Source of the DNA: Callorhinchus milii
Taxonomy: Eukaryota
Direction of reading: 5' to 3'
Length of the DNA stretch: 64,000 nucleotides
NCBI RefSeq assembly: GCF_018977255.1
Contig: NW_024704742.1
Span: forward strand, 79,796,001 to 79,860,000
The notes beneath the pieces were generated by a model. It had not been told where the DNA came from, ran no database searches, and was given only the letters and a program-made list of their open reading frames with translations. This document shows, piece by piece, positions 991 through 47,582 of this stretch. The position numbers and the translations under genes were made by a program. Position 1 is the stretch's first letter. Each line of letters begins with the position of its first letter.

Positions 991-2934
991 ACTGAAAGGC
1001 GCTATACAAATGTAATTTGTTGTTGTTGTATTTTAGGTCCCTTTCTCAGTTGTAACATTCATGAAGTAGGAAGTGGCCTCATTGCTTGTGGATTATAGCT
1101 ATAGTAGATAGCCTTAGTTAGTAGGATTTTAGATACTCTGAGATATTCTCGCTAAGTGTGGGGAGAGAATATGCCTCCAGCACATTTGATCCGCTCAGTA
1201 CTAATTAACTGCATGAAAATTAATAACTGCATTTCCAACATGAACCAGGGGTGTTACAATGTAAATTACATAAGTGTATACCTCATAGATAAGATCAGTT
1301 TTAAGATCAGTTTTTAAGGTTTCCCCAATAAATATCTTTATTTGGTGAAAACCGATTGGTAAAAGCAGAATATAGAGAATATTCTTGGGGCCTTAAGTGC
1401 ATAACATGGCCCCAAAATATTTGCTTTTATTACTAGTGATCAAAAAGTGAAGGACTCTGTTTGGCATTGTGTGGTGGTATTCTCTGACAATCTTTAGCAT
1501 GAACAGAATATGTCAATTTTTATTTTTGGTCAGCTGGATGTCTGACACATGCGGAAATCTATCACCATGCTTAAGAGTATCAAACCAAACCAAACCCTGC
1601 ACTCCATCCAGAAAATATCATTCAGTGGCAGAATTTTGTTTTACAATTTTTCACCAAACCATTTTTCCCTCTATTTTTTGCCAATTTTGGCACGAAAAAT
1701 AATGTTTCACTCCACCAAACCTCCCTCCCCAAAAACAAATTATATACCCAGGATTTTATTTTATGGATAAAATAACATTATTACAGTAATCCTTAAATAT
1801 AGATCAGATTTACTGCTGGGTTATTTTTATTGTCATGGTTAGTATTTGGTTGAATACAACTTTTAGAATATTCTTTAAACTTACCTATAAATCCGATTAT
1901 GGTATCTTTTCCCATCCAATGACATTTCTACAGAAAGGCTTCCTGATCTCCTGGAATCTCCAATCCCAACTATGATGGCATCGATGAAATGTTCCTATTA
2001 AGAGAATGTGTAAAAACATATATTGTAATGACATTGAAATGGAAATTTGTTTGAGAGAAGCTTCTTTATTTGGAAACAGTGTGCGGAGGAGACACTGCTG
2101 AGTCATGTGCATTTGGAAGACTTGCTGGGTGAAATCTGTGCTTTCTTAAGGAGTGCCATCTTTATCTTTTGTGCTTGAGCTGGGCTGAGAAGGGCACAAA
2201 TCCTGGTCTGGTCCAGGGCCAGGAATTAGGAAGCCTAGTCCACTTGGTTGGACTGAAGTTGGTTAATGGTGAGAGCAATGGAGGAATTGCACGTGTCCTG
2301 ATCTGTAAAAGGGGTGGCAGGCACCAATTGCCAACCCAGGTGCATGCTTCTCCCCATGGTTATTGTGATGTGATCCTGCTTGTCTCCCCTAAGATTAAAC
2401 ATGTGACATAATGGAAGTCTCCATGTGTCTGTGTCTGCCTAGCTCAAGGGTCTATGCTACAATACACTCTACAGTAAAGTCCTCAAAGGACTTCAAGGTG
2501 TTTCAATGATGTGATGAGGCACTATATCAAATACAAGAACATCTTATTAGTAGCACTAGTAATGAAAACCATTGGGGTCAGTGTGGTTGTACAAACTTGT
2601 GCCAGGAATAATTGGTTCTTCAGAATCAGCAGGTTTGAGCAGACCATTTGGTGCTGCAAGTGTTGCTAAGCATGATAGACAATCGCAAGCCCAATGTAAC
2701 AGATTTGACCAAAAAATGTTGACTATGGACTGAAAATTCCTCTCAGTGTTGCCATTTTAAGGTAATTGCTTAGTCCTGCACTTCAGTGGAGTGTGAACAA
2801 GGTGAGTCACATTCTAGCTAGCAATCCACAACCTTGTATTGGGGCACCCATGAAAATTGTAACACCCTCCAAGCAGTGTAACACTTCCAATAAGATAGAT
2901 GAATCAGGCCTGTGATAGAACATCACAAAGGATA

Positions 2935-3338
2935 AATAATAATAATAATAATCCTTGCATTTGATATAGCACTTTTCACATCTTCTCGATGTCTCAAAGC
3001 GCTTCACAGAATAGACTGTAAAGTGAATTGACTGTATATAATAATAATAATCCTTGCATTTGATATAGCGCTTTTCACGTCGGGAGGACGTCCCAAAGCG
3101 CTTCACAGAACACACTGTAAAGTGAATTGACTGTATATTTGTGGGCGAACGTGCAGCCAATTGCTCACAGCAATGTCCCACAAACAGTCGTGGTTTGAAA
3201 TAACCAATTTATTTTTTGAGGGATTATTATCAGGCGTGTGGAGTAAGGAAACTTGCCCAAGATTTCACCCTGCCAGGAATCAAACCCTGGTCTCTCATTT
3301 GCAAAGCGAGTGCTCTAACCACTGAGCTACAGGACTCC
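2935..3338 (-). mobile_element. Same SINE family, full length, with two tandem 3' tails
   Basis: Reverse complement of the 67-394 element, plus a second tail at 2935-3040. Confidence 0.9.
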
Positions 3339-3408
3339 TGTATAACAAGTCCTAAAAAACGTATGGTGCAATGTTTAGCACCAAGAGATTTTAAAGTACT
3401 ATACTTAC

Positions 3409-3553
3409 CTGCAATAAGTCAATGTTAATGGATATATCTGGCTCAGCAATGCTTTTAGCTTCTCTCTGGAGATTTTGAGCTGATGTACTTTGCCACCAGG
3501 TCTCTTGGTTCCCGTCCACCATGGCAGTGGGTGGATGGGCCAGCTCAGGATTA
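3409..3553 (-). CDS. Exon 2 of the LN domain protein (SNPELAHPPTAMVDGNQETWWQS...INIDLLQ)
   Basis: 145 nt, aaatag / gtaagt, phase matches exon 1; hallmark LN motif HPP..xD...TWWQS. The gene continues beyond position 1. Confidence 0.88.
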
Positions 3554-3854
3554 CTATTTAAAGGATAAACATTAAGATTCATATTGTTTTCAGGTTTGAA
3601 AAGGACATAACAGCTGTAACCTAACGCAAGCAAACAAAATGGTTTAAGAATGAAAATATACAACAAAATATAGATTGTAAAGCAATTGTAATATCAATAT
3701 TTCTCAATTCATCTGTTTTGTTTGTCAACAGAATGTGTTGGTTTATAGTTTCAACATTTACTTGCAATGAAAAGAGTTTATTATCTCCCTTTACGGCAAT
3801 TTTGCACATCCTAACATGCTCACTGCTCACGATGCTGTTTTAAGGTGTGTGTTT

Positions 3855-4215
3855 TGCTCAGGTGGTTGGACTCTGCCTGAGAAGGTTGTGGGTTCGAGCT
3901 CCCTGTCAGGACTTGAGCTCATAGACTGAGCTGACAGTCCAGTACAGTGCTGGGGGAGTACGTTGTTGGAGCTGCTATCCATTAAAGGAAACATTGTGCC
4001 ATTGTACCCAAACACTTTGCAAAGGAAACCAAGTCTCTCGTTGTGTCTTTGTCAAGATCTTCTAAATGAATTGTTATTCACTTTATGGATATTTGGACCT
4101 TTCTGTATGCAACACGACTGATATTTTTGACAACAAGTCCAGTCACTTGTCATTGCATTTCAGTTGTGAAGTGTTTTTGTTTGTTTCGGCATGACAATGC
4201 ACTATAAACGTACAA
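3855..4215 (+). mobile_element. Older degenerate DeuSINE (SacSINE1-like)
   Basis: GAAGGTTGTGGGTTCGAGCTCC B-box region, GACTTGAGC..GCTGACAGTCCAGTACAGT body, eroded tail. Confidence 0.6.
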
Positions 4216-4986
4216 ATGTTTTCTTTTTTCTTAATATTTTCCAACCGTCAGTATCCTACCCCAAAAGATATTTAGCAATTTTATAAAATAAACGTTCTGA
4301 AAAATGCCTGAAAAATGCATTGGCAATGACTTGAGTTATAGGAAATACATGTAAAATAGATCAGAATCCATTCAACAACAACAAAATTACATTTGTATAG
4401 CGCCTTTCACGTGGGGAGGATGTTATTATTCATGTTATTATTCAATCAATAACATTCATTCCGTTCATAGGTAGTAAATATTTAACCAATGGAGTGGAAA
4501 TGGGCTTCACTTCAAGTTTAATTCCACCAAAATTCTTTGTCAAACTGTATCCTCTGAGTGATGGGGAGACAGTGCAGTCAGGCGAGGATGGGGGTGATAG
4601 GATCAGACGAGTACAGAAGCCCACTGTGCCATTCAGGCCCAACGCAATCATTTTTATCTTACTACATAAATGCAAGGTAGTGACAGCACAACGGTACATT
4701 GACAGTAAACATCTCTTTACAATCTCGAGCCAATGGAGCAATTAATTTCGTACACACGTCATTTCAATTGCACACCCGATCACTGCAACAAAGAAGAAGC
4801 ATCTCCTTCTGTCCCCATTTCATTGAGGGCAGACACTCCCTCTTCCACCAAACAAAGAACATTGTTTTCCTGATCCCATTGTTCAACCACAATCCAAAAA
4901 TGAGTTCAGAAATGAACCATGGACGTATCATTTTCAGGTCAATGAGACGCCTGGCTCAGTTTGCTAAAATGCAGGGCTTATTATAC

Positions 4987-5195
4987 CTGTTGTCGCAAGT
5001 TTGAAGTTCCCTCTGTCCTGCTCTCAGGTAGAACTGGTAGTGTGAGTAGAAATATTCCGGATCAAGACCTTCCCCACACATGCTCGAGGCGGTCACTGGT
5101 TTGTTTAGTGCCACATTCACCGGACTCGATGTAACTTTAATGCAGGATCCTTTCAGGATAAAGCAGTACAGAGCCACAGTTACTACAGCCAGCAT
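4987..5195 (-). CDS. Exon 1 of a secreted laminin N-terminal (LN) domain protein (signal peptide + start of LN)
   Basis: MLAVVTVALYCFILKGSC hydrophobic leader, then NVALNKPVTASSMCG...EYF...TCDN; donor AG/gtataa, phase 2. Confidence 0.85.
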
Positions 5196-26578: not shown

Positions 26579-26659
26579 CATTGGCTTCATCTCTCCCCCA
26601 CTACCACCTCTCCCTTGATCAGCATCCCTCAATGCTTTTCGACTGTTTTCCACATACTC
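26579..26659 (-). CDS. SLC44A1: SLC44A1 exon 15 (EYVENSRKALRDADQGRGGSGGEMKPM)
   Basis: 81 nt, ttgcag / gtaggt; ends in KPM like mammalian CTL1 just before its alternative C-termini. Confidence 0.95.
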
Positions 26660-27978
26660 CTGCAACAGAAACAGAAACTCACTGAAAGGTAAAAAGGAAT
26701 TGCAGAATTTCTGTAAGCACGATCGGGATAATTTTTTAAGCAACTCCCTAGGAGTGTTGTTAACAGAAACATATTAAAATGCATGATTCATAGCATAGCT
26801 AAATTTATTTGTGTTTATGGTGTACATCTCATGTAGAAAAGATGGTCAGGATGGCAAACATAAGCTCCCTCTGCCTTCAGAGGAGCACTCTTGTTGATGT
26901 TAGCTGGCCTTAGATGACAGCAACCACGCCACATGAGCGTTTGTGAAATCTTTCTGTGTGTTGAACTAGTTCCCTCCTTTGCCCACCAAAACAGACACTG
27001 CACTTGACAGGAATTAAATTCATTCTGTAAAGAGCATTGGAGACGTTTCAAAATTAACTGTGGAAGCCAATAGATAGTCTACCATTAAAATGGTACAACA
27101 GCTGCAGACATTCATGTTAGAGAAGAGAAGATTCCTTAACAAATTCAAGATCATAAAGATAGATAAAATAAACTATATGGAGTAGGCATTTTACAGTCAT
27201 AGAGCACTACAAAAAAGGAGCATGGACATCAAGCTCAGTAGTAGATAAGCAAACAGACAATTTATATTCAACAACAGAATGCAGACAACCAGGGAGGTAG
27301 TGGAAGCAGATTATGTCAGCAAATTCAAGAGAAATTAGATTATCATTTGGCAAAGAAACTGGTGAAGAGTACGATTTTTTCCACATGGACTACAATTGTA
27401 TTTTGCGTTGCTTTACTTTTCCTGTACTCATATACAGGCTGACTAATGGCGTTAGATCCTGGGGTTCGTTATAAATGTTTAAATGCTGAAATGGCCGAAC
27501 ATTACACATGGTGAGCAATCATTTATTGAAGGAGGAAGAGGAGCGGGAGTTTGGGGTGAGGTGAGGGGAGCGGGTTGTGCGAATAGCCACCCCAGCTCTC
27601 TCTCATTCTCTGGTGCTTGTGTGGATTGGTTTGCTGGTTCGTTGCCGATCGCCCCAGTTATTGGCTGCCGAGCACTCATTTGATTGACTGCGAGAACCCC
27701 GCCTTGATTTACTACAAGGCCCCCTGTGACTGACTGTTGAATACCCCCACTATTTTGACTTGATTGCAGATTGTTATATCAGGGGCTGTTCTGATTCATT
27801 GATCGCTGTACCGGGGTAAGAATCAACAGGAAAAACAGGTGTTTCAATGTCGAGTTCGCTATTACCAGAATGATGGTAATAACTAGGCGTCGTTATACAG
27901 TCTGCAACACTATATTTCAAGAAATTGTAAGCAAACCAATGCATTACATTAATTCCTCAGGAAACATCACTCACTTAC

Positions 27979-28215
27979 CATTAAAGATTTATCCATGTAG
28001 AACTCTCGCCCCGGGGTTCCATCGTTGTACTTTGTGTCAATGGCGAAACACAGGAAGAGAACATCTACCACCATTTCATATATGGAGAGGAAACAGTGTG
28101 CCACAAAGAAACCAAACAGGCAAACGATAATGAGGGGCAGGGCCCACACTGTATAATCTTGTTGGTGATTCAGAAGCAAAATCCCAATAAAGCCTGTGCT
28201 GCACACGATGAGAAC
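27979..28215 (-). CDS. SLC44A1: SLC44A1 exon 14 ([11 protein letters not shown]...[34 protein letters not shown])
   Basis: 237 nt, tttcag / gtaagt; part of ORF 27967..28317. Confidence 0.97.
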
Positions 28216-28484
28216 CTGAAATAACAAACATGAGCCCATTGATAGGTAAGCCTTTAAACAATCACAACAACATTCGCAATAAGTTTCCACACTTACTTTT
28301 TTTATACAGAAGACCATTCTTCTTCATCTCCTCCAATAATAATAATAATAATATTACTTGCACCTTCTACGTCAGGAGAATATATCAAAGTGCTTCACAG
28401 GAGTTGCTGTGAACTTTAATACATTTTCTAACCATATATTGTGAAGTTAATATTTATAAAGTATTTAATAACAGTTTTGACCCT

Positions 28485-28607
28485 CTTGCCTTCCCCGCAG
28501 CTCGGGAGGAATTTCCTGATAGACTGCAGCAGCGCCGGCATGATTTCCACTCTCTCAATGAGCCGCAGTCTGTCAGAAAGACCCTCCCGAGCTGAGGGGA
28601 AGGCAAG
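28485..28607. repeat. Long inverted repeat (46-bp arms, 31-nt loop)
   Basis: Arms 28485-28530 and 28562-28607, 39/46 complementary by manual alignment. Confidence 0.9.
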
Positions 28608-28694
28608 CCTTCTCCTAACCAACCAGGTCCTCCAAACCCCTAGCTCCTGCCACCCTACGAGCAGCTACCGCTGCAGGTAGTGAGCTGTGAGGCT

Positions 28695-28863
28695 GACTGA
28701 GAGACAGAGAAGAAGAGAGTAGGGGGAGAGAGAGTGATTGAGAGAGAGAGTGAGTGAGAGAGGGAAAGTGATAGTGTGTGTGTGTGTGTGAGAGAGGGTA
28801 TAAGAGGGAGGGAGGTAGAGTAATTGAGAGTATGGGAGAGAAAAAAGGGAAAGTGAGAGTGAT

Positions 28864-28895
<32 letters not shown>

Positions 28896-28975
28896 CGATA
28901 GAGAGAGAGAGAGAAGGCATGAGGGAAAGGGTGAGAGAAAAACAGAGCGCGGGAGGCAGAGAGAGACAGGAGAAG
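28695..28975 (+). repeat. (GA)n/(GT)n low-complexity tract
   Basis: Directly visible. Confidence 0.9.
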
Positions 28976-29375
28976 TGAGGGCAGTGTTTTGTGGTTCATG
29001 TCAGGTCAGACGAACAGAGTCTCCCTCAGCAGTCGCGGGGGGAGAAGAGGGGGGAAGGGGCATCTGAGTACAGACAGCGAGTGACGAGCCGTGCAGTTTC
29101 CCCACAGAAAGCCCCCTCTTTCTCCCCCACCATCTCTGTAACTTGGCCGTATCCCTCGCCCAGTTCCATTCCCAGAGTTCCTTCGACTCGCTCTCTCCGT
29201 CCCCTCTTTTAAGGCATGTCAAGACCTAACTCTTTGTACTTTCGGTCATCTTTTCCCCTCCCACCCCATCTCCATCAACTCCCAACCCCAGTTCAGATTT
29301 CCAGCCAGCCATGTTTGAGGGCTTTGAGACATCCTTCCAGCGTGAAAAAGGCGCTGTTCAAAAGTTATGTTTAGC

Positions 29376-29471
29376 TTCTGGAAGGGAAACACAAAACGTC
29401 GCTTATGTGGCCGCAGACATTTCTCAAATGGAGATTCCGGCTCTCAGCAGCCAAAAGGTTGGACCACCATG
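29376..29471 (+). mobile_element. Partial second copy of the hAT MITE (right half and TIR)
   Basis: TTCTGGAAGGGAAACACAAAA...CAGCCAAAAGGTTGGACCACCATG matches about 6252-6349. Confidence 0.8.
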
Positions 29472-29887
29472 ATAGATAATAAATAAATAATAATAATATA
29501 ATGCAAAATAATCTACAATCTTTGTTCAAATACTGAATGTACCCACGTGTCAAGATAAGGATTTCAGAATTTCGCTATCGTGTGAAGCAGCTTTGTTCCT
29601 AGCAGTATAAATTGGAGCATTAGCTTGATATGTAAAGGCCCCTCAAATATCAAGTGAGAGGAAATATCAAGTGAGGTTATGGGGGGAAGAAGAAAGAGAT
29701 TGGAAATTAAATTAAATAGATGGTTTCAGCAACAAGATCAATAACACAAGTTAGGTCAGGTTACAAAACAAGTTGGAGTGTATCTGCAAATGCTTTCCAT
29801 TAATAACACGTGATTAAACACATTATTATACACATATTATAATTAATTTCTATTAATAATACATCCAGGAAAATGTAGAGATCAGAC

Positions 29888-30025
29888 CTTTCCCAAGAAC
29901 AGTACAAAGTCACCGACTGTGTTGATGGCAGCCACCCTCAAAGCGTTTTCCACGAGGATGACAAAGGCCTCCCTGGCTGAGGTACAGAAGCTGGTACTAT
30001 TGATGGCTGTTGCAGTGTATGCATT
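29888..30025 (-). CDS. SLC44A1: SLC44A1 exon 13 ([46 protein letters not shown])
   Basis: 138 nt, tgacag / gtctga; highly conserved CTL motif. Confidence 0.97.
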
Positions 30026-31356
30026 CTGTCAGAACAGAAAACAATTGTTTAAGCATTACAAAGGATTTAAACCTTGAAATTTAATCCCTGTTTACCCTTA
30101 TCAGAACTCTTCAGTATGAAAACCTGTCCCCTCTCTCAAGTACTATCATTTCAAAAATGTAATAATCAGCAGCAATTTAATAAGTATCAGGTAAATAGAG
30201 CTTAATATTCTAGTCAGCAGATGGCTGACTTTAATCCCTTGAGTGCTTATGAAAGCAAACCAGCAGCCAAAATTTTATGGATTGTAAAGCAGATGTATTT
30301 TGGATATGTTTTGAATATTTTTATATCAAAAACCTTTCTAGTGTGGCATAAACGTGACATAGGCCACTTCATAATAATAACTGCTGCATTTGATATAGCG
30401 CCTTATCACATCGCTTCACCAAATATACTGTAAAATTAATGGATTGTATAAATAGTGGGCAAAACACAGCAGCCAATTGCACTCAGCAGTGTGCCACTAA
30501 CAGTCATGGATTGAATGACCAAATTAGTTATTTTTATTTGAAGGGAAAGTGATCCGTCAATCAAGTAACAATAGAGTTCCTACTGACTGCCAGGTAAACA
30601 TTGGTTAAAATTCACGTATATTAAAACTCAAATTATTTTGTGAGAGAAAGCTCCCTCATTTCCATCAGATTGAGGATACAATTTCAACAAGTTATTTTCT
30701 GAATTGTTCTGCAAGAACATGGGCACAATTTGCATCGTACTGGTCGGGCTGCCTGCCACGTGAGGACCTTTCCGTTGCTGAACTGTGTGAAAGATGTGCA
30801 GCCACATAGCATTCAATAGCTGCTTTTTAACATGGTAATCCTATTAAAAATGAGGTCCTAATGCTTTCTCACAAGAAATATACATATACTCCAGTTGAAA
30901 TGATAACACCTATAAACTCTCAAACATGTGTAACAAACAGTAAGTAGAACTGGATTCCAAAAATTTGTTTGCCAATTTTCTCCTTACTGAATGAGTTTGA
31001 CCTTTTTTATTCCTATGCAAGACTACAGTTCCAGTCAATGGTTCCTGATCATCCTTCAATACCTCACCAAGTGACTCATATACAAATGAGTCTTAACAGC
31101 AAGCTTTGGTAAGCTATTAAGCTATTCAACAGGAACTGAAAGGCATCATAACCTAACCCATGCTCCCCTTATCTTGTGTCTACCTCTTTCCAAAAAGAGG
31201 CCTCCAGACAGAAACCCGGAGTGGAAATTTTGGCAATTTTCTCTACCCTACCTCAGAGCACTCCGAGACGTTCTCCTAAAGGGTAAGTTGTTGTGTCAGG
31301 GGTACTGAAGCCAATGATACTGGACAGGGAGAGACTGGGGGTTACATACTCTAACT

Positions 31357-31710
31357 GGGATCCTGTAGGTTAGAGCGCTTGCCTCGCAAGTGAGAAGACC
31401 TGGGTTCGATCCCAGGCAGGGCAAAACTTTGGGCAAGTTTGCTCACTCCACACTCCTCGGTTCACTAAGCAGCAAGTTGGAACCCAGTTGTTAGTCGATT
31501 GGTGGATCGCTCTCTGGGGATAATAATTCCTTCAAATAAATGTGGACACTCAACCCACAACTGTTTGTGTGACGCTGCTGTGCTTAATTGGCTGCCGCGT
31601 TTCGCCCACAAAATATACTCAATTTACTTCACAGTATATTCTGTGAAGCGCTTTGAGATGTCTCGAATATGTGATAAAGCGCTATGTCAGATGCAAGGAT
31701 TATTATTATT
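31357..31710 (+). mobile_element. tRNA-derived SINE, long variant
   Basis: B box GGTTCGATCCC; extra internal ~60-bp segment (..GTTGTTAGTCGATTGGTGGATCGC..); (TTA)n tail. Confidence 0.88.
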
Positions 31711-31814
31711 AATTCAATTTAGATCAACTAATTCAGCATAGATTCGCTGTTAGGATTTGAGTTTTCTTCTGTAAGGCAAAATGCTGCACCTGGCCATCAG
31801 GAGAACAAATCAAA

Positions 31815-31925
31815 TAAATAATAATAATCCTTGCATTTGATATAGCACTTTTCAGTTTTCTAGACACCTCAAAGCGCTTCACAGCATAAACTGTAAAGTG
31901 AATTGACTGTATATTTACGGGCGAA
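31815..31925 (-). mobile_element. SINE 3' fragment
   Basis: Family tail. Confidence 0.8.
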
Positions 31926-32038
31926 TATTCTTTCAGAACAGATAATGGAAAAACAAGGAAATTATATTTGTATCAGAATTTTGGGGGCAATAAGAATAGC
32001 CTGTGTGAGCAAAGTAAAAAATAAAAATTAAACCCGAC

Positions 32039-32122
32039 CTGATTCAGAAAATTGAGGCACTTCTCCAAACACCAGAGACAGCAGATGCAAGACTTCAGCA
32101 TGCACCTGGCACATGCATTCTC
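32039..32122 (-). CDS. SLC44A1: SLC44A1 exon 12 ([28 protein letters not shown])
   Basis: 84 nt, ctgcag / gtcggg; Cys-rich CTL motif. Confidence 0.97.
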
Positions 32123-32239
32123 CTGCAGGAGAGAATAAAAACATCTGCAAAGTTAAAGTGGGTCTTCAACCTCAAGAACTGTCAGTTAAACTTAAAAGGC
32201 AAATGTCAACATGAAATTCTTGCTGGTCTTTTTTCATAC

Positions 32240-32396
32240 CTTGCCTTTCAGCTTGCTGTGAATATACATTAGGATCAGTCGTGGGATCTTTACCAGTGTG
32301 ATGATGAAGGAACCTTTGGCCACAGTTCCCATATGGTACCGAATTATACGGAATATTGAAGTAACTATGGGGGTCGCTGGCAAGTTTTTCTTATCC
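32240..32396 (-). CDS. SLC44A1: SLC44A1 exon 11 ([11 protein letters not shown]...[34 protein letters not shown])
   Basis: 157 nt, ctatag / gtatga; CTL family RYHxGTVAxGS motif. Confidence 0.97.
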
Positions 32397-32502
32397 CTAT
32401 AGAAAAGGGGGAGAATGGAGAGGAGGTAAAAAAATCATGTTTGATATTACAGGAAAACCTTCATCCATAAATGCCCTAAATAGCCTTAAAAATTCCCTTA
32501 TT

Positions 32503-32613
32503 GTTTTGCCCACAAAATAGAGTCAATTAATTTTACAGTATATTCTGTGAAGAGCTTTGAGATGTCTCAAAGAGGTGATAAGGCACTATATCAAATGCAA
32601 GGATTGTTATTAT
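32503..32613 (+). mobile_element. SINE 3' fragment
   Basis: Family tail. Confidence 0.8.
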
Positions 32614-34113
32614 TCTTGATTACTACTATATTTTCAACTGTGACTGTGTGAAGAATGGAGTACAAAATGAGGGCTTGGGGAAAGAAAGTAGCTTCATGAT
32701 GATAAGGAAAAATGGGGAGAGCCAAAGGGACAAATACATGAAAATAGTAATTGGCATGGGCTGAATAGTGAAAACAAGTTACAAAAGGGAAGCAGACAAG
32801 ATTTAACCATCAATTTAATATTTTTTTGTGAAATTTCTGATTCAGCTTTGAAAGGCGAGGGTCAGGTCCCAGGGGTTTCAGGAGTAATAGCTGGAAGTTA
32901 AGACCAAGACCAACTCCCAGCGATTGCTTCAGGTTAAGTCTGAGACCAGCCCACCTAGATGCTTGGTCACAATTGTATCAGGCACAAGTTTGTCCTCAGC
33001 CAACATTGCATCAGAGATCCTAACTGGAGATTTACAGCAGGGCAATGGAGAAGCAGCGAGGAGCCGACATATATATTATAGACCCCTTGAGAAAGTCAAG
33101 ATGATGGGTCTCTTGCCAGCAAGTATGCAAGCTTAAAAAAAAAATCGATTATACAAAACCATGAAACAAATAGGATTTAATTTTCCTAGAAAATAATAAT
33201 TAAATCATTCACATGGAGACAAAATAATTTAACATCCTTATGTATGACTTTAATCTCCTTAATATGTTCCCCAGAGGGTGGTCCGATTCCCAATTGAGGT
33301 ACAGAAAGCTGTTTGTGGACACCTTCAACAACTGGTTCCTAACACAGCATGTTCAGCACTATCGCAGCACATTAGTACTAGTGCGGAGGAGGGGTGGGGG
33401 AAGTGGCATGGGCAGGACAAAAATGCACGAAGGAAAATCTAACAAGTTGGAACATTTCAAAAGTTGGCATTATGATATAAATAAAACCCACAAATGAAAA
33501 TGAGTGGTTTACACACGAGAGGCCTTGTGCTACTCCGAACTGTATTGACTGTTGCCTGATGATGATTAAGCGGCAAACATTAAACGGCAACATTAGAAAT
33601 TAACAATTAAAGGTGTGCGCCTAATACTCTCCAGAATTATGTAAGCAGGATACATCTCTCTGAGCTGAGTGTGTGCATTTCATTCCAAACATGGGAATTT
33701 CCACACGTAGATGAGATATGTGGAACTTTGTTGGCTTACTCTTAAGCATGGTGATGGGTTTCCACATATATTGGACATTCAACTCACACAAAAAAATTGT
33801 AGTCTTGACTTCAGAACTAAAAGGCCTGCAGTAAATTATGTTGGGGCTAGATTTGAAGTTGTAATGCAGAAGAAGAAACAGTGAATGGATCATGTCACTG
33901 TATCATGGGGCACTAAATTTAACTGTACTTTATTTGCAAGTTTAAAAAAAATGCCTACTTTACAAAACCATGAAACAAAAGGATTTAATTTTCCCAGAAA
34001 ATAATAATTAAACATACAGACGTGCTTGTCAGAAATAAATATTCAACCAAAACATAAAGCACAATCTGAAACTGAAATTCTTAGCTTTGTTTGAATCAAA
34101 TGCCACAACCATA

Positions 34114-34127
34114 CCACAAGATGGCGA
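34114..34127 (+). promoter_or_regulatory. CTCF/YY1-like motif
   Basis: CCACAAGATGGCGA in SLC44A1 intron 10; motif match only. Confidence 0.35.
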
Positions 34128-34974
34128 CATGAACAATGCAAGACGATATACTCATCGCATCATTATTATTATTATTATTATTATATGTTAACATTTCCCT
34201 CCAGATTCTGCAATGTGTAATCCCAATAATTGTATGCGGAATTTGCCGACTTCAATTCACTCCAAAGCAAAGACTCTTTAATGACCAGTTAGTTTTGCCC
34301 ATGTTGCCACTGGCAATAAATGCGCAGAAATATTGCCCTTGCAGTCTGAGTTATATTGTCCTCTTGGGGGAAAGTGAAATCATATTGTGCACTTGTACAA
34401 TATTGCTCTTAATCACAGCACTGAAATGAATTTCCGTTCTAAAAGGGTTTGGCATTGGTGGAAATTGATTTTTCCGCATGATTTTTGACAGTTTGGATTA
34501 TCTCCACCTCTAGAAATTTAAATTCAAAGTGGAATCACATCATTACATGGGTGTTTTTGATTTATGCTACTGATATCAGTTACCACAATAAAAAAAATGA
34601 AATCAGATATTTGAGGCACTGTCTTTGTATGACATGACCATTGGAAGGCTGACTATTAATTCTTGTGGGACCGTACAATAAAACCTTAAGCTGCAAGATT
34701 CAGTGTTGGCGCCAGTGTTTCAGGAGCAAAGAGGTACCTAAAATTCTCAGTTGCACTGGAAAACAAAAAAATGCAACCCAGAACAGCAGCTCAGATCAAA
34801 GCAGGCAGTCCATAGATCGAGACAATTTTAACAAAATGCACAAAAAGAACATTTATAACCCATTCCCACTTGGAACCCATTTTGCAAAAGCAATGACTGT
34901 TAGGGAGAAAGAAGCAAGCTGTTAAAATTGAAAAAGGAATTATCTTCTACTGTTGAGAAAATTGTAACCACTAA

Positions 34975-35243
34975 ATAGTAATAATAATAATAATCCTTGC
35001 ATTTGATATAGCGCTTTTCACATCTTCTCGACGTCTCAAAGCGCTTCACAGAATATACTGTAAAGTGAATTGACTGTATATTTGTGGGCGAAACACGACA
35101 GCCAATTGCACACAGCAATATCCCACAAACAGTCATGGATTGCAAATGACCAATTTATTATTGTTTTTTTTTGGTGGGATTATTAATAGGCGTGTGCAGT
35201 AAGGAAATTTGCCCAAGGTTTCGCCCTGCCTGTAATTGTAACC
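34975..35243 (-). mobile_element. SINE, short variant, 5'-truncated
   Basis: Matches 67-394 from the B box onward. Confidence 0.85.
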
Positions 35244-35448
35244 CTCATTGAGAGTCGGAAGAGTAGACAAGTCACCAATTCTGTGAACCCAAACTAACAG
35301 GCACAACTGTTGTAGCTTGACAAATACTATCCGGTTGCATTCTTTGCGATGTCTAATTCAGATAATAGAAAAATACTTCTTCACATTAGGGACCAATGAA
35401 GTACAAGAGAGGAAATGTGACAACAGGTATTTCTCGAAAATGTCTTAC

Positions 35449-35614
35449 CTTGTAAAATAGTAGGTTACCACAGCACTAGCCACTGTCATCTGCTGACAGG
35501 CCAGAATGAACTCACTGATCCAGATCAGGCCAACCAGATGATAAATCCACATATATTGAAGGGGACCTGACATTTTAAATTCCACAAGACCTTGCTCATC
35601 TAGAACTTGATCTC
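35449..35614 (-). CDS. SLC44A1: SLC44A1 exon 10 ([12 protein letters not shown]...[26 protein letters not shown])
   Basis: 166 nt, tcatag / gtaaga; part of ORF 35445..35753. Confidence 0.97.
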
Positions 35615-35844
35615 CTATGAACATAATGTAAAATATGTTTTGGGTCTCATTTAAAAAACATGAAACTATATGAAAAACATGGATCCAAATACATCGATGG
35701 GGTGGAGGAGGGGAGTGTGAACCGAAGGAGTGCCTTGCTTTCTCTTGGTGCAACTTTGGACAAGAGAGTTAGTAGTGATCACATACTGGAATTTCTAATC
35801 TATACATGCATCTGTAAAGACTCAGAAGAACATGCAGTTGTACA

Positions 35845-36355
35845 CCTCTGCAGCTTGTGTCCTCTCTTGCACCAAGTTCCTCGAGCCGATCACACCCATC
35901 CTCGCCCATTTTCACTGGCTTCCCATCCCCCAGAGGATCGAGTTCAAGATCCTTGGTCTCAGTTTAAAGCTCTCCATGGTCTTGACCTTTCCTACCTCTA
36001 TGACTTGCTAATACCTTACCAACCTGCCCACTCCTTCTGCTTGCAGCCAATGGTCTGCTTCATAAGCCCAGCCCTGCCTGCCTCAAACTTCAGTGGTCAG
36101 GCCTTCAGCTTTTTTGCCCCCATTCTCTGGAACTCCTTCCCATAATGCCTTCACTTCACCATCTCCCTTGTCTCCTTCAAGGCCCAACTCAAAACTTTTC
36201 TCTTTGACTATGCCTTTGGTCATCCTCCCATCTCCACCCACCTTGCCTTCAATCCTTCTTATTCCAACCCCCAGCTCAGGTGCAAACCCTTGACTGTCCA
36301 ACTTGAGACATCCTCCCAATGTGAAAGGCGCTATATAAATGCAGTTTGTTGTTTG
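35845..36355 (+). mobile_element. L2 3' fragment
   Basis: Degraded HWLP..RIEFK and AFSFFAPILWNSFP, plus tail. Confidence 0.8.
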
Positions 36356-36644
36356 TGGTCGCCATCACATCATTGAGATGTCCCCAAATTCTTCACAGCA
36401 TTTTACTGTGAAATATAGCAAATGTATATTTGTAGGCAAAAGATAGTATCTAATTCTAGTGGCTTCGGGGGCCAAACAGGACAGGCTATTATTTCTATAA
36501 TTGCATGGAATCCTAAGAATAGAAACATATTTCCAACATGGAAGAAGCCCTCTGTACATTTGCAGTACGTGTTCTGAAAGGGAGAGGGAAAGAGAAATGG
36601 TAGAACGTAGGTCCATAAAAGGATGCAATTTGATAATATCCTAC

Positions 36645-36831
36645 CTGCAGTACCCAGGAAAAGGAGAATCATGACCCAGTATACCCAGAAAAGTATAAGG
36701 GCCAGGAAAGTCCAAAGTGGCTGTAAGACTAGGAATGGAAGATGAATGAAGACTTTCCCTGCCACATGGAACAAGGAGATGGTAAGAGCCACACGTTTCC
36801 TCATGATTAGGATAAGGAGCAGTAAAATGAC
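36645..36831 (-). CDS. SLC44A1: SLC44A1 exon 9 ([28 protein letters not shown]...LLFLGTA)
   Basis: 187 nt, ttttag / gtagga; CTL family RKRVALTI motif. Confidence 0.97.
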
Positions 36832-37734
36832 CTAAAAAATAAAACAAAAAGTCACACATTTCCTCATTCAGAATTAAACATTATTAAGTTAATTAAATAA
36901 AGGGGTGTCCCCAAGGTCCCTATTAATGCTACTCTATCCCATTTTCCTGGCAAACTGTAAATCACTTGTCAAACCAAATCACATTGCTCTTGCAAATTGC
37001 GAGAACTTTAAACGTTATTGGTAATGAATAGGATAGGACAAGCTGAAGAGTCATCCCCTAGCTAGGAATTATGCAACGTTAAGCAGCTAAATAAATAGAC
37101 AATTGCTCCAAAACAAAAAAGATGCTGAGAGAAGGAAAAATGACTTAGCGAGCAACAAATTCCCATGAGTATTAGTACTCTGCAGCTTAAGGCTATCATA
37201 CTGATACCTGCAGTTCCATTACAAACATCTTCTCAAAAAGAATTTTGTCAAGGATTCAAACAACTACACAATTGCACATCAGATAAGTTCGTAAATGATT
37301 CTCCTGGCTTGCCTGTACATCACTCAGCCATACAAACCGTAAAATCGCAGGTTTAAATCCCAATTTATGGTGAGTTAGGTGACCTCAGTTAGGGTGTTGA
37401 TAACAGTTTCAACAAATTGCATTTGAAGCTTTTGAAATGACATAAGGAATTACAAAAATGCATGTCCATGCAGAAATATGGCAAAACAAGTCATGGAAAG
37501 TAAAACATACATTATCACATAGTTACAGTACAATCAGCAGCACCTTTCTACTACATCTGATCTGTCTGCAATGTAACCTATATTATGTACAAAAAGATTC
37601 ATTTCCTTCAGCAGTGAGCTAAATAGGTGATATTTTCTGCAATAAACTCCTAGAGTATTGTGCTATAAGTTGAACCTGCTCTTATATCATAACTATCAAA
37701 TCAGATTCTATTGATGTTGAACAGACTGTCCAAC

Positions 37735-38086
37735 TTATTAATAATAATCCTTGCATTTGATATAGCACCTTATCACGTCTTCGAGATGTCTCAAAGCGCT
37801 TCACAGAATATACTGTCAAGTGAATTAACTGTATTTTGTATTGGTGAAACGCAGCAGCCAATTGCACACAGCAGTGTCCCACAAACAGTTTGAGTGACCA
37901 CATTTTTTTAAAGGAATTATTACCCCCGGAAAAGCTATCCGCCAATTGACTAACAACCAGGTTCCTTACTGTTAGGTAAACAGAGGCGTGTGGAGAAAGA
38001 AACTTGCCTATCATTTCACCTTGCCCGGGAGTCAAACCCAGGTCTTCTCACTTGTGAGTGTTCTAACCAATACCCTACAGGACTCC
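37735..38086 (-). mobile_element. SINE, long variant
   Basis: Full head to tail similarity to 31357-31710. Confidence 0.85.
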
Positions 38087-38205
38087 ACAATAGCATTATT
38101 AGTTACAAACCAACACGAAAACACAAAAGTCAATTAACAAATTGCAATAATTGTACATCCCGAGCAATTGTTCTCTACATATTAGATAATAAGTTAAATA
38201 CCCAC

Positions 38206-38345
38206 TGTGAATATTGTAGCTGCAATGGCGTACACCAGAAAAGCCTGAGCATTATCAAATGCCATTTCAGCTTGATCCTTTGACTGCTCTTCACTTTCAG
38301 CCTTCTTCTGATCAACATACAACCACCAAAGAAGAGCTGTGCCAC
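38206..38345 (-). CDS. SLC44A1: SLC44A1 exon 8 (GTALLWWLYVDQ...FLVYAIAATIFT)
   Basis: 140 nt, attcag / gtgggt; part of ORF 38194..38421. Confidence 0.96.
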
Positions 38346-39749
38346 CTGAATGGAAATTAAAAGGAGGTAGCATTGAAGAGATAGAGGTCATGTCCACAAT
38401 CTCCTTAAAGGTAAGATTCAAGCATTCTAAGACTCAGAATAACAAATGTATTTGAAGAAATGTTGTGCATTGAGACCCTTCCTCCTGTTACGAGAAGATT
38501 CACTTTGTTCAGCAGTGAACTGAATAGGTGATATTTTCTGCAATAAACTTCTAGAGTATTCTCCTACAAGCTGAACCTGCTCTTATATCATACCTATCAA
38601 ATCATATTCTATCAATATTGAACAGACTGCCCAAGTTATTAATAATAATCCCTGCATTTGATATATGCCTTATCACGTCATTGAGACGTCTCAAAGCACT
38701 TCACAGAATATACTGTAAAGTGAATTGACTTTATATTTTGTGGGTGAAACACAGCAGCCAGTGTGCACAGCAGTATCCCACAAACAGTAGTGTTTGTGGG
38801 ACACTGTGTTTGTGTATGTGAAATAGAGCAAGAGAGATACAGAGAGTGTGTTTAAAGAGAATGGGTGGTAACTTGCATTTCTGCAGTGCTTCATATGTGA
38901 GATGATATCTCTAAGCACTATGCAAGAACGGTGTAGGCTGCTCAGTAAGGTAGGGGTGGGAGATAAGAATGTAGCAGAAAACAACTGAAAGGATTCAAAG
39001 CAGGAAGAGGGGGATTAAGGATTTACGATGGGGGAGGAAGGAAAGGCTCAAATTGCTGATTCACATGCCCTCCCAATGGTGGGACAGAGGACAGGTGGGA
39101 TTGCAAGAGATTCAGGTGGACACGAGCAATACCGTTGTGTAATAATCCAAGGTTTATTAAGTAATACAAATATCTTATTCATAAAACTGGGACCATAGCT
39201 ACAGTAGAATCAATATTGATTCCACTGGAAAGTGTGCTGACTCTCTACAACAACTCCAACTATTTCAAAGTTACATCTTTCTTTTATGTGTTTCTAACTA
39301 CCTCATAGCAATCTTTGAGCAGGCTCTTTTTGCATGAGAAACTAACTGATAAGGAGAGAGAGATATGGACAACTATTTGGGAGGATTCCTGCTTCTTAGT
39401 CTTGAGCTGATCAGATGTCCAGGAATGTGCTTCTCTCTCTGAGCACCCTTGTGTTCACATCTGTCCTCATGACATGATTACTCAATTCCTAGATGGGAGT
39501 ATGACCTCTACCCAGACGCCAAACAAGGGAAAGCTGACTCTCAGACAGGGTCAAGCCAATATATCTTCAACTTTTCTAACGCTAATTGGCACATATACTC
39601 TTTCAGGGGCCCTAAGTCAGTCATTTAAAACACACCCTTGTCTATGCCCCAATAAGTAAGGAACGCTATACTAAATAAATTATGTGTTTGGTTGTATTTT
39701 AAAAGTATATTAATTAAAAATCTTAAAAACAGTAAGAATCACAAGTATA

Positions 39750-40130
39750 ATCTTACAGGATATGCAGTAGACCCATGTTTATGGAATGAAGGAAGTAGAT
39801 ACTGCTGGAGGGCAGAAGGAGATTGTTCAGTAGAGTGAGTCAAGGAAAGATGAGGAGCTTGACAGTGGAATCTGGTGGAATGGGAGTGATGGGCATAAGG
39901 AGCCGAGAGTGCAAAAGGAAATATACTGTAGAGTTGTGAAGAAACTGGACATTTGAGAGAGGGTGAGATACTCAAGTTAGGAAGCCAGAGAGGATAGCGT
40001 TTGATAAAGTGGTGATGCCAATGCGGATGAAAGTTTTGGCTACATTGTGGTGAGAGGGACAGAAATGGGCAATTTTCTAGAGGTGAAAAAGCAGTCTAGG
40101 TGAAGGACCAAGGCTTGGAATTTAATGCTC
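39750..40130 (-). mobile_element. Highly degraded L2 fragment
   Basis: Purine-rich plus strand similar to other L2 copies. Confidence 0.5.
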
Positions 40131-40291
40131 AAAAGGGAGCTGAAGGTCATATAAAAATATAAATGCATTTTTTAAACACAAAACTAATCTTTACTACAAA
40201 GAACTGCATTTACTTTCATCATAATATTGAGAATTACCCTTTTCTAAATATAATTTATTACTGAACTAAGTAGTAAATATAATGAACTTAC

Positions 40292-40381
40292 CAATGGAGC
40301 CAACGATAGTGAGAATTGTAAGGATCCAAACAAGCACTCTGGAGATGTAGCGGATCACCACCATCAATATCATTGACAAAA
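40292..40381 (-). CDS. SLC44A1: SLC44A1 exon 7 ([31 protein letters not shown])
   Basis: 90 nt, tcacag / gtaagt; TM segments. Confidence 0.97.
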
Positions 40382-43000
40382 CTGTGAAGAAAATAATTCA
40401 TAATGCAATCATTTATCAAGTTCAAAAGTAAAAATTCAAACAAAAGATGTGGATGGGTGGGGTAGACATGCTTTTAATTCATGTTATGTGTACTTGCTAC
40501 ACACACGGAAGCAGACAGTTTATTTTGTGAACAACTCAAGACAGAAATGCAGTGAATTAACGCATGCCTGCTTTTCGCCTCTGTGACCCTAAGTTGAATA
40601 CAGCCTTTTAGGTGTTCCATCTTTTGACTCCAAAAGATCCCACGTAAAGTTTAGCCAATTTCACCCAGTTCCCAGGGGAAGGGGCATAGCATAAATCAGG
40701 CCCAAAATGCCACTAACTCTAGATTTTAATCAGAGCTGGCACAGGTTGGGGGGCATTGACAAGGTTGGCATCAATGGTGTACTCGTGGAGTGTATATATA
40801 TATATATATAAAGCTCTATACTGGAATCCATTATGATACCCATGACCTCGTAGTGTTTTTCCTTACACTGGGCAATGAATGTTGTAAAGTACTCCATTTG
40901 CCAGCAGTAACCTTCAGTTTAAAAAGTAAAATACTGATAGCTGCACATCATTTATTCTGTTTAGACATTAGTAACGTCATTATTTTAAACCCTTGTTGGT
41001 GGTGATCACAGGTTTTTCCCCAGAATATGCCAGCTACTTTGCTTGAAGAAAAATAAAAATTAGCTCAAACCAGTATATTATACACCACTCTCTCAAAGCA
41101 TTGCGACTTACAATGCTATCCACAGAGAAAACAATTGCTTTCTTTAATTGACAGTTGAATAATTTACTAATCAGGGACGAGTTCCAGTTGTGGTACCAAG
41201 AACTGACTGCAGCTGGATTTGGTGTTTACAGGAATCAATTATTTGTGTTCAGATAATAACAGCAAGACACTGCCAGAAATTTAAATGATCCGAAGAGAGA
41301 AAAACTTGGCTTTCAGTTGCACAAACAAAAATAGTGCTTGTGTATCTTCAGCAGAATCGTCAAGAACCAAACATTTTATCCAAATGGGCATGCTCTATTA
41401 AAAGTTAGAATTGCCATTCAAAGCATCTGATTGTTGCACTAATTTGCACATTTTCATTTCAAAATCAAGTCACAGAGAACAATGTTAGAGACAGACAGTG
41501 TCCTTAAGATGTCCGTAGGCTAAACAAGACATAGAAAAATACCAATAGTGGTCACATTCCAAGAGAATTCTTTATCCACCCACTGGTGCCTTGTCCACTT
41601 CACTCGTCAGACAAACACTTCAACTTAGAACTATTTCAGAACAGCAAAAAAAATAGTTTAATGGGGGAATATTTTCATCCACAGTGTGCCTACCCAAGTA
41701 CTGTCCTTCAAGTGGAAATAGCTTTAATCATCCTAATCTTTCAAGTGGAGATGGCCACATTTCCAAAGCTATGCAAAATCTGTATGTAGTTTCAAATAAC
41801 TTTCAATTAAATAGCACCTTTCATGTAGGATAATGTCTTTAAGAACTTTGCAAGGTGAGAAGTAGGTGTGTTAGGGGGAGGTGTCAGAAGGCATGGTTTC
41901 CAGTCAGTTTTTAATAAAAGTTTTAAAGACATTGAGATAGGGTGCAAGGGGGAGGAGTTTTGAGTGTACCTGAGGTTGTGATGGAGGGTTGGGCTGAGTT
42001 TGTCAGTGAGAACAGCATTTGAGCAGTCAAGTCTTGAGATGACAATTGCATTAAAAAATCATCTCTGATTTGCAAATTTGCAAAGCTTGCAAATGCACAT
42101 TAAAAAGGAATATGGTAAATATTATCACTAAAGATTTTCCTTGACGAACATTTTATAATCCACCCATTCAAAAAAGATGTACATGGTACAAAACAAGACC
42201 ATTAACTGTAAATAGGAATATCACAGCACATAATTTACCACGGTGCAACTGTAAATCAGGATCAAGAAAATGAGACAAAGCACTTTGGGGAAAAAAAAAT
42301 CTCAAAAATTAATTGCAACAACATGTAAAAAGTTGAAACAAAAAATACATAAATAACAATGGCCTTTTTACCTTTTGTACTGAAGTGGCAGTATGGTCTT
42401 TGAAGGGTCAAAAACATTGTGCACATTGACACTGTTAAAAAGTGCCTGTGATTTACAAAATGTTAAAAAATATTCATGTTGCAAATTAGAATTGCATTTG
42501 AGGAAGATGTCAATTAAATGTAATCATAACTCATGGAGTCAAGTTTTTGCACAATTGCTGAAGCAAACCACCCAACCACCAAACAGAAGAGTTTCACCCC
42601 TTCACATTTTTTCTTAAAATGCCAAGATGTGAAAATCAGGCCTGAGACAAAGTGAAGCACACCACAAGACAAAATATCATATGTGACAAATGGTACTTGC
42701 ACAAAATACAATATACAGTTAAAAAGTTATATAATGCCAGGGGCAGTTTAGAAAAAATCTATTTGATTAAAAAATGTATACAAGATTCCTAACATTAAAA
42801 CAAAACAGCTCTTTAAAAACAGAAGAAATTTGTTGGCATAAAATTGGCATTATATAATGAAACAAAGGGTGTGTGTTACTATGGGATACAATAGTGTGCT
42901 AGATATACACAAAGCACTCAACTTCAATTACATTCTCCCATAATAATACACTGTCCTGTTCAATATTGCAAAAGTAAAAAATTGATCTCAGAAACATTAC

Positions 43001-43170
43001 CTAGTGAAATAAAACAAAGTCCTACTATAATTTCTTTGCTGGTCATTACTCCACTAATCACTCTCTGCAAGACACTATTGTCACGGAAGAAGTTGATCAG
43101 GGCCGCAGAAAAATTGGCATAGCAGGAAATGTTCACTGGGGCACAACGATGGAAGAATGGCACAGGCTTA
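43001..43170 (-). CDS. SLC44A1: SLC44A1 exon 6 ([17 protein letters not shown]...[12 protein letters not shown])
   Basis: 170 nt, actag / gtaatg; part of ORF 42960..43274. Confidence 0.97.
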
Positions 43171-43358
43171 CTAGTGTAAAACAAAAAGACAGGAAAATGG
43201 AATGCAAAATTAATATCAACAAATGAAAGTGATTCATGACAGCGAGGCTTTCTTAAAAAAAATACTGTATACATGTATAAGTGTCAGTGCCAATTAAATG
43301 TTAACCTTTGCTACACACAAAACTATACACAAACTCTATAGATTTTTATTCGTAACCA

Positions 43359-43428
43359 TTTCTCATTTCACTTACCCAGGAAGGGAGAAATATTTTCTCA
43401 TTTCACTTACCCAGGAAGGGAGAAATAT
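43359..43428. repeat. Perfect 35-bp tandem duplication
   Basis: TTTCTCATTTCACTTACCCAGGAAGGGAGAAATAT x2. Confidence 0.95.
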
Positions 43429-44948
43429 TTTACACAATTTAAATTAGTAACAAGTCATTCTGAAATAATAAATGCATACAATGTAATCCATTATATTTTT
43501 ATAAAGTATCTAATTATTACAATCCTTCATTATCTGTTGGATGTACACATTTATGCATTTTTCTTCTTTCACTCAATTTCAAGCAATATAGTCAGCAGGC
43601 AAACCGAGCCATGGATTTCAACATAGTTTCATTTGATACAGCACTAAATCACACTGTAGTAAGGTTGAAATAGCTGAAAATGCCTCACAGATTGAGTTAG
43701 GTTTAAGTCTAACACAGCTTGGGAAAGTACAGAAAGATAAGCTAGTGGATGTGATGTCTCTGCACCAGTTGCAAATGTTGGACACAAAGGTTAAATGATC
43801 AGAAATGTCAAATGCCAGTCTGGCCACTGAACCAAACGCCAAAATAACTGAAGTAATTATAGGAGCCAAAGAAATCCAATAACTTCTCCCTGACTGTGTG
43901 TTGATCTGAAACACAATATAGTTAATGCATCTTTGCAGGGGGCATTCCTCAATATGTGGCCTGCCAATGTTTGATTACCTATCTACCTTGGGAGCAGAGA
44001 AGTGTTTTTGTACCAAGCCAGAAGTTGAGGTATATATGTTTGCAGCTAAAGTAGAAGTTAAGCTTCAAAATTCCATGAAAGCAGAATAAAAAAGTTAAGC
44101 TTGGCAAATAAAATCCTACAATTATAGTAGTATTAAATCATCCAGATTTACATGTACTGCCATTCAATAAACTTTATGAATCTATGTGGAAGAAAGACTC
44201 ACTCTTTTTTGTCAATTAATAAGTCAACATATTAAGATTAATTTGTATTGTGAAAAATAAAAAATAAAAGATTGTGTGGGGTTAGATTAATTTGTTGCAT
44301 TTCATATTTTGCAACAGATTAACCAAGGCGGTCTGACTTAATTTAGCAGCACTACATGAAAATTAGATAATGCTGCATCTCTACTTGAAACTGCTGAAAG
44401 ATCACATAAGCAACATGAAAATTTTTGTGGGAGTGAAGAGATGTCAAAAGTACAAGTTTTGTATGTAAAGTCCAAAGGACCACTTGCACTTCTGTGGATC
44501 ATTTCCCCACCAATATGTTCCCACAGCCTAGCAATTGCAAAGATGAAAAGGTTTGACAAGTAGTGCACGCTAGTCAAGTAGCAACTGCAAGGACAGCATT
44601 TAGGTAGGCTTTGAATTTAAAATCATCAACTTACTGAAAGCTATAAAGCAACAGGATTTGAGAATAAATCCAAAACACATTGCTATTGTATATGGTCTTG
44701 TGGAGACAGCAAAGGAAATCATTTTGGTTTTAATTAAACTTAATAATAATATTATTGACTATTGTGTTAATTCTGCTAAGTGATCAAAAGTAAACTTCAA
44801 AATAGACTCGCCAGAATCCTGCACTCTGATTTACAGCAATTGTTTTCCAATTCCTAAACCTAATGTACAGTTGAATTAACAGACTGAATTCATATTATTA
44901 CAAATACCAACCACTATTTGTATTCAACAGCATTTCTGAAAAGCATAC

Positions 44949-45039
44949 CTAACTGGAACAGGAAGTTTAGGACATTTCGATCTTTTCCATTCCTTTACAT
45001 ACTTGTCTGGACTCACTTCATAAGAGCACAGCAATGATC
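44949..45039 (-). CDS. SLC44A1: SLC44A1 exon 5 (GSLLCSYEVSPDKYVKEWKRSKCPKLPVPVS)
   Basis: 91 nt, ttgcag / gtatgc; CTL1-like LCSY..CPKLPVP; phase-compatible. Confidence 0.95.
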
Positions 45040-47180: not shown

Positions 47181-47582
47181 CTGGAGAAGGGAAGGTCGAG
47201 GGGTGATATGATTATGGTCTTTAACATTCTGAAGGGAAATAGATAATGTAGACTATGATAAGCGGTTTTATCTTGTACTGAACAGCAGAACTAAAGGACA
47301 CAGCCTACGATTGAAGGGGGCTAAATTCAGAACAAGTCTGCAGAAACACTACTTTCAGTGAGTGAGTATGGAACTTATGGAACAGACTCCCTGGGGAGAC
47401 AGTGGAAGCAGAAAATGTTGTTTGTTTCAAGAACAAATTAGATAGACTTCTGCTAGAAAATAATATTTCAGGATACAGGATATATTTTGGGACACAACAT
47501 GACAAGCGACTGCTAGGATTGTGGAAGGTGAATTAGATGGATCTTGGCCTTCTTTCGCCCGGCACATTCTTATGTTCTTATA
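47181..47582 (+). mobile_element. CR1 LINE 3' fragment
   Basis: RGDMI..F.ILKG / RTKGHS / WNRLP-like coding remnants; (TTCTTATG)n tail. Confidence 0.8.

Follow-up and report, generated by a model that had tools for sequence, protein, structure and literature searches.

Bilaterian basement membranes are typically built with two laminin alpha genes in their toolkit, as set out in passages of PMC3308698, and the hairpin of the laminin N-terminal (LN) domain is described in a section of PMC3409155 as having two disulfides. Several LN features have been tied to polymerization. Parts of PMC8388930 report that mutations in the PLENGE motif impair laminin polymerization, as does LAMA2 C79R in the CxxC motif, and parts of PMC9852560 report that alpha1 Y128R, E203R, and R263D break the polymer node and place an alpha1 loop (K58-Q72) at the alpha1-gamma1 interface within that node. 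Another group, the beta/gamma-like laminins, is reported in passages of PMC3516229 to be absent from ecdysozoans, urochordates, and vertebrates.

The closest relatives of the gene described here are invertebrate chains of ~3,000-3,100 aa deposited as "laminin subunit alpha-like" or "epi-1-like", namely those of Ptychodera (XP_070542660.1), Holothuria (KAJ8029999.1), Lytechinus (XP_041465665.1), Biomphalaria (KAI8788951.1), Branchiostoma (XP_078587491.1), and Sanderia (EukProt P009566). Invertebrate proteins of this family are already in databases, automatically misnamed. The literature that we searched contained no description of a third-type alpha family or of a vertebrate member; earlier laminin phylogenies may cover the invertebrate clade. 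Here, we describe three exons from Callorhinchus milii, in a window of 64,000 nucleotides (the whole stretch of DNA that was analysed), which appear to begin a vertebrate gene of this kind.

Three minus-strand exons encode the start of a putative secreted LN protein

The first coding exon (exon 1: 4987..5195, minus strand, 209 nt, phase 2) ends in a GT donor and encodes a leader followed by the start of an LN domain with an NVALNKP motif and the hairpin cysteines Cys1 and Cys4. The N-terminus is hydrophobic (9-residue Kyte-Doolittle means of 2.0-2.8 over the first seven sliding windows), and the leader is likely a signal peptide. Intron 1 (3554..4986, minus strand; GT..AG, phase 2) separates it from exon 2 (3409..3553, minus strand, 145 nt, phase-0 donor), which carries AHPP, TWWQSTS, and the family insert and ends at DLLQ. 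Across a phase-0 intron 2 (1995..3408, minus strand), exon 3 (1885..1994, minus strand, 110 nt, phase 2 out) holds LN core strands, a GDS motif, and the changes P135S and W152R. The first-pass annotation of this DNA had proposed two exons of compatible phase with a 118-aa frame. That pair was correct, with GT..AG ends and cysteines at 11, 18, 40, and 67, but the exon count was not, since our splice scan added a third in-frame exon at 1994-1885. Exons 1-3 together give 154 codons without a stop (464 nt).

To compare the window with the family, we used a profile built from 22 invertebrate relatives. In all six frames, the three exon ORFs ranked on top (E = 5e-14 for exon 2, 2.6e-10 for exon 1, and 8.8e-5 for exon 3), with the next match at 1.2, and the best match in the reversed window reached E = 0.34. 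Hence, the exon matches are not due to chance. The same profile gave no sign of a fourth LN exon in 1-1884. Exon 2 alone matched Pfam Laminin_N (PF00055) at E = 4.4e-4, under the gathering score, and the Atlas returned Laminin_N clusters at 0.91-0.92, with recognition under threshold. Judged by its sequence, the peptide is an LN-domain protein.

Two further AG acceptors are available to exon 2, one before 3613 (in frame, adding 20 aa) and one before 3620 (out of frame). Both were set aside: the 3620 form runs into a stop after 79 aa, and the 3613 form scores 123.1 bits on the family profile vs 135.5 bits for the 3553 form. Homology favours 3553 as the putative exon 2 acceptor and, with it, a 4987/3553 junction. 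At the other end of exon 2, six of six fragmentary relatives run into unrelated sequence right after xDLxx-V, which suggests that the position of intron 2 is shared between these relatives and C. milii.

The upstream neighbour on the same strand is SLC44A1 (CTL1), as had been proposed; a splice scan places its coding exons at 26579..54471 (minus strand), one of them matching human CTL1 at 146.8 bits. We take FSD1L to be the gene downstream of SLC44A1 in human. The SLC44A1 exon at 26579-28215 (minus strand) has two possible donors four bases apart (27979 and 27975), and there is a candidate further exon at 26579-26681; these suggest alternative C-termini. Repeats are also present around the LN exons. 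The intron after exon 3 contains a 195-aa open stretch with a YADD motif (417-1001, minus strand), presumably LINE reverse transcriptase-like, and copies of an abundant SINE-like repeat lie at 2939-3340, 4370-4410, 5540-5670, and 70-380, where contigs of all four runs pile up to very high depth.

The peptide very probably belongs to a third type of laminin alpha chain

We asked which LN proteins are closest to the 154-aa peptide. In a BLASTP search, 32 of the top 34 matches were family members (57.8-103 bits), with the best canonical alpha at 68, and the peptide, which is part of neither profile, scored 135.5 bits on the family profile vs 57.8 bits on a canonical-alpha LN profile. In trees of 46 rows and of 23 chosen rows, both restricted to alpha chains (that is, without beta, gamma, beta/gamma-like, netrin, usherin, or vertebrate LAMA3/5 rows), the peptide and the family separated from alpha1/2 plus alpha3/5 at 100/100. 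The trees exclude three short fragments, the Plakobranchus row, whose LN is gapped, and P0139, which lacks an N-terminus. Approximately unbiased (AU) tests rejected a grouping of the peptide with vertebrate LAMA1/2 (p = 2e-58) and with invertebrate alpha3/5 (p = 0.001; four rows), and did not reject a grouping with amphioxus (p = 0.41). The 46-row tree placed the peptide among spiralians (99/97), a placement that we dropped because the 23-row tree did not reproduce it. The C. milii branch is long (1.3-1.4).

Individual residues point the same way. At 10 diagnostic columns the peptide has the family residue in 6, the canonical residue in none, and another residue in 4. Of the 36 columns conserved in the family, 32 agree with the peptide, which puts it toward the bottom of the spread among members, although two members match a smaller share; the peptide also has the GDS motif, the WWQST insert, and the hairpin with Cys1 and Cys4 only. 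We consider it very probable, from these comparisons, that the peptide is a member of the third-type laminin alpha family. The proposal of the first-pass annotation, an LN family distinct from the canonical ones, thus held against the alphas tested (100/100 in the trees, and AU tests).

A similar peptide might come from a divergent orthologue of an established gene (LAMA, LAMB, LAMC, netrin, or USH2A), and exon 2 alone does weakly match netrin-4, alpha1, and netrin-G (E = 0.03-1.7). Such an orthologue is nevertheless extremely improbable, given the AU tests against LAMA1/2 and invertebrate alpha3/5 and the position of shark LAMA2, far from the peptide in the 46-row tree. Furthermore, a family member aligned with solved LN fragments of gamma1, alpha5, alpha1, netrin-1, netrin-4, netrin-G, and beta1 at 38-88 bits, with none standing out. 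Usherin has a LamG-like domain before its LN domain and FN3 repeats after it. USH2A was rejected as a candidate: the C. milii LN directly follows the hydrophobic leader, and no FN3 match was found in the relatives.

Searches with exon 1 were sparser. Against proteins of 122-2,000 aa there were 19 candidates, none significant, and against 1.84 billion representatives there were 13 matches, two of which are family fragments; five others that we scanned turned out to be repeat proteins (PKD, discoidin, or others) and were discarded.

RNA-type contigs contain an exact exon 2-3 joint and the altered residues

Contigs of four of the 13 listed runs were compared with the stretch; their RNA type is a guess, none being on record as RNA. 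Those that cover the exons come from three runs of one study (X1, X2, and X3), at a depth of 2.5-4.3. In contig 1 of X1, position 1993 is spliced directly to 3408 without any mismatch, the two flanks being 78 and 212 letters long; the one-base shift from the annotated ends is a shared C. The exon 2-3 splice joint is exact in this contig. Contigs of X2 and X3 align to exon 3 without a mismatch and, from 1885 on, continue outside the stretch for another 190 and 44 letters, and exon 1 is covered by record 7 of X1 and record 14 of X2. The 4987/3553 junction, for which the first-pass annotation had suggested an RNA-seq check, is absent among the joints listed (703 more are unlisted, and repeats dominate the table), so this acceptor is favoured by homology and not by a contig. 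One contig extends beyond 3553 to 3619, adjoining the out-of-frame acceptor. An X1 contig continues 34 bases beyond the exon 1 donor (4953-4986, minus strand) through a stop codon and, past 4953, has 52 further letters without a place in the listed pieces. Run X4, from a second study, leaves the exons uncovered and is uninformative either way.

Three residues of the peptide are altered at near-invariant sites (T39M, P135S, and W152R, conserved in 44, 45, and 43 of 45 rows, respectively). Each is one transition away from the common residue, and the same letters are found in the RNA-type contigs. Relaxed selection is therefore conceivable, and the locus might be a decaying third-type alpha gene, transcribed and spliced yet under relaxed selection or non-functional, as a late survivor of a gene lost in other vertebrates. 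The long branch would fit decay, as would the low contig depth, the read-through beyond splice sites, and the lack of a named vertebrate family protein among the matches listed. Against it, three exons (464 nt) stay free of stops with compatible phases and canonical splice sites, the exon 2-3 joint is exact, and 32 of 36 conserved columns are kept, a share that two members fall below. We regard decay as improbable, though a realistic concern.

Loss of the inner hairpin cysteines is ancient and family-wide

The two disulfides of the LN hairpin pair in a nested fashion (1-4 and 2-3). As had been noticed, C. milii retains Cys1 and Cys4 of the hairpin but not Cys2 and Cys3, whose positions are occupied by Y and L. 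Cys2 and Cys3 are found in none of the 22 family members vs 23/23 canonical alphas, and Cys1 and Cys4 are kept in 22/22 members; the loss is therefore ancient. Both inner cysteines are absent together in all 22, which fits nested pairing and supports the earlier suggestion that one whole disulfide was probably lost. The long insert after WWQS is likewise genuine: the WWQS-to-xDL distance is 25 vs 15-22 in canonical alphas, where it could be measured by pattern in 21 of 23. Neither feature is a peculiarity of C. milii; the insert, like the cysteine loss, is family-wide and ancient. In a structural model of a sea-cucumber member, the chain is predicted to fold as LN-LE1 (pLDDT 87.9; top Foldseek matches all LN structures), and the hairpin segment forms two short strands and a helix with the LN fold kept.

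Full-length family members are alpha-type chains that end in five LG domains

Named members among the matches listed belong to Sanderia, Lineus, Dimorphilus, gastropods, all five echinoderm classes, two hemichordates, and Branchiostoma; the family-type LN occurred in 20 of the best 120 of 520 matches. No named vertebrate or ecdysozoan member was found among the matches listed, in which some rows are unnamed. Retention across cartilaginous fish with absence from tetrapods, as initially suggested, was not established, there being no shark member among the matches listed in length-limited searches. Automatic names conceal the family in databases, since members P0019, P0032, and P0022 are called Usherin, laminin beta-1-like, and epi-1-like, respectively; the Bulinus protein labelled "Usherin" is a family fragment.

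Full-length members (2,900-3,200 aa) consist of LN, about 5 LE, a ~200-aa globule, 4 LE, L4, 7 LE, a coiled-coil-length stretch, and 5 LG; the identities of the globule as LF and of LE2 are ones that we infer. Because five LG domains are an alpha feature, we set the family as alpha-type: by domain content, its members are alpha-type chains, alpha3/5-like in the back and compact in the front. In Apostichopus, Lytechinus, and Antedon, a separate alpha3/5 chain exists beside the family member. The coil region contains a conserved GxNGW motif in 8/22 rows (P0022 and others, all deuterostome where named), possibly a knob-like break in the coil.

The first-pass annotation had guessed at an LN plus laminin-EGF plus cadherin-repeat protein. 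LE repeats do follow LN in the relatives, but a Pfam cadherin match was found in 0 of 13 family proteins and a DxNDxP motif in 0 of 22, which makes a cadherin-repeat protein exceedingly unlikely.

Architecture can nonetheless change within the family. In the Branchiostoma member (P0045/P0046), LF and L4 are replaced by Thr-rich repeats, which extend over about 1,600 aa in P0045, so chordate copies need not keep the family architecture. The C. milii LN start might, by extension, head a rearranged vertebrate chain, for instance a short arm plus a coil broken by a MAM domain, with LG domains missing, or a short product like netrin or LaNt, and such a chain would act on the matrix as a modulator instead of anchoring to cells. 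[quoted passage not shown] A rearranged chain of this sort is quite improbable.

Features of polymerizing alpha chains are missing from the family

We mapped residues required for the polymer node onto the family. A PLENGE-like motif was found in 0/22 family members vs 23/23 canonical alphas, and the R263 column holds R in 0/22 vs 23/23; both were compared in invertebrate members only, as the two positions lie beyond the C. milii window. The Y128 column holds Y in 2/22 vs 22/23, and Ala in C. milii. The K58-Q72 loop maps exactly between the two lost cysteines (numbering via Xenopus LAMA1). The mapping of alpha1 E203 is ambiguous, and for it the motif alone is given. We take LAMA2 C79 to be the first cysteine of CxxC; in rodent LAMA2 rows the CxxC pair is numbered 81-83/84-86. 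Of the features of polymerizing alphas, C. milii thus lacks Y128 and a Cys-closed K58-Q72 loop, and the invertebrate members lack PLENGE and R263. The absence of PLENGE and the other polymerization residues suggests that the family likely stands outside the ordinary laminin network, and the balance tips slightly toward a non-polymerizing third-type chain.

Alternatively, the chain may polymerize through a compensated interface or with partners of its own (e.g., beta/gamma-like laminins) to form a second laminin network. The LN fold and family-specific surface motifs have been kept from jellyfish to C. milii, and the range of the family among named matches resembles that of beta/gamma-like laminins as given in passages of PMC3516229. 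The same passages report beta/gamma-like laminins as absent from vertebrates, however, and a common range is no interaction. We consider a second network unlikely but deserving of serious attention.

Discussion

We favour, with moderate confidence, the reading that exons 1-3 are the 5' end of a third-type laminin alpha gene whose chain is predicted not to complete the polymer node. The window holds 154 of ~3,000 residues, so that ~95% of the expected protein lies beyond it. The three exons would supply a probable signal peptide and the first half of the LN domain. Once secreted, the chain would form part of a laminin trimer and attach to cells by its LG domains, which in the vertebrate gene, like the coiled coil, are expected outside the window. 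It would not complete an ordinary alpha-beta-gamma polymer node and would join the network poorly or with other partners. By analogy with the short-arm-less LAMA3A/LAMA4 laminins, it may occupy receptors and loosen or diversify the network, and its remodelled LN tip may be left free for another ligand.

A third alpha lineage reaching from jellyfish to a vertebrate would revise the two-alpha picture and would represent a matrix gene whose loss apparently came late in the evolution of vertebrates. It would also be a natural full-length alpha chain without those features of polymerization that cause laminin disease when mutated, and the question of its polymerization is open to the established three-chain node assay. 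A more far-reaching scenario has three ancestral eumetazoan alpha types, of which the third reached jawed vertebrates as a second laminin system bypassing the canonical node, possibly with beta/gamma-like partners, and survives as a functional copy in C. milii, perhaps with MAM in the coil, after loss in bony vertebrates. We offer this scenario as conceivable but doubtful.

How does the C. milii gene compare with known laminins? It shares with the invertebrate "alpha-like/epi-1-like" chains the NVALNKP start, the two-Cys hairpin, WWQST with its insert, and the GDS motif, is about 40% identical to them over the LN half, and falls with them in one clade (100/100). It differs in being a vertebrate gene that adjoins SLC44A1, in having a hairpin intron that is missing in the fragmentary relatives, and in the three changed near-invariant residues. 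Among canonical chains, the back part of the family (4 LE, L4, 7 LE, coil, and 5 LG) is colinear with alpha3B/alpha5 and invertebrate alpha3/5, at 25% identity over ~2,380 aa. In front, however, the family has about 5 LE, not 11, and they precede a globule of ~200 aa, not ~550 aa; it lacks Cys2/Cys3 and PLENGE and exists as a separate paralogue in the same echinoderms. Alpha1 and alpha2 resemble the family in LN fold, in being LG-terminated alpha chains, and in similar length, but their short arm is different (4 LE, L4, 9 LE, L4, and 4 LE), and one clade with them is rejected (p = 2e-58).

The beta/gamma-like chains (Fahey and Degnan 2012, via passages of PMC3516229 and 10.1101/2022.07.26.501511) are described there as likewise non-canonical and patchy in range, whereas the family has five LG domains, which mark an alpha chain. 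Lastly, LAMA3A, LAMA4, netrin-4, and LaNt alpha31 share with the family the predicted property of a laminin component that does not complete a polymer node. These components are without either the LN domain or the remainder of the chain, whereas in the third-type family the short arm is complete and its LN is remodelled.
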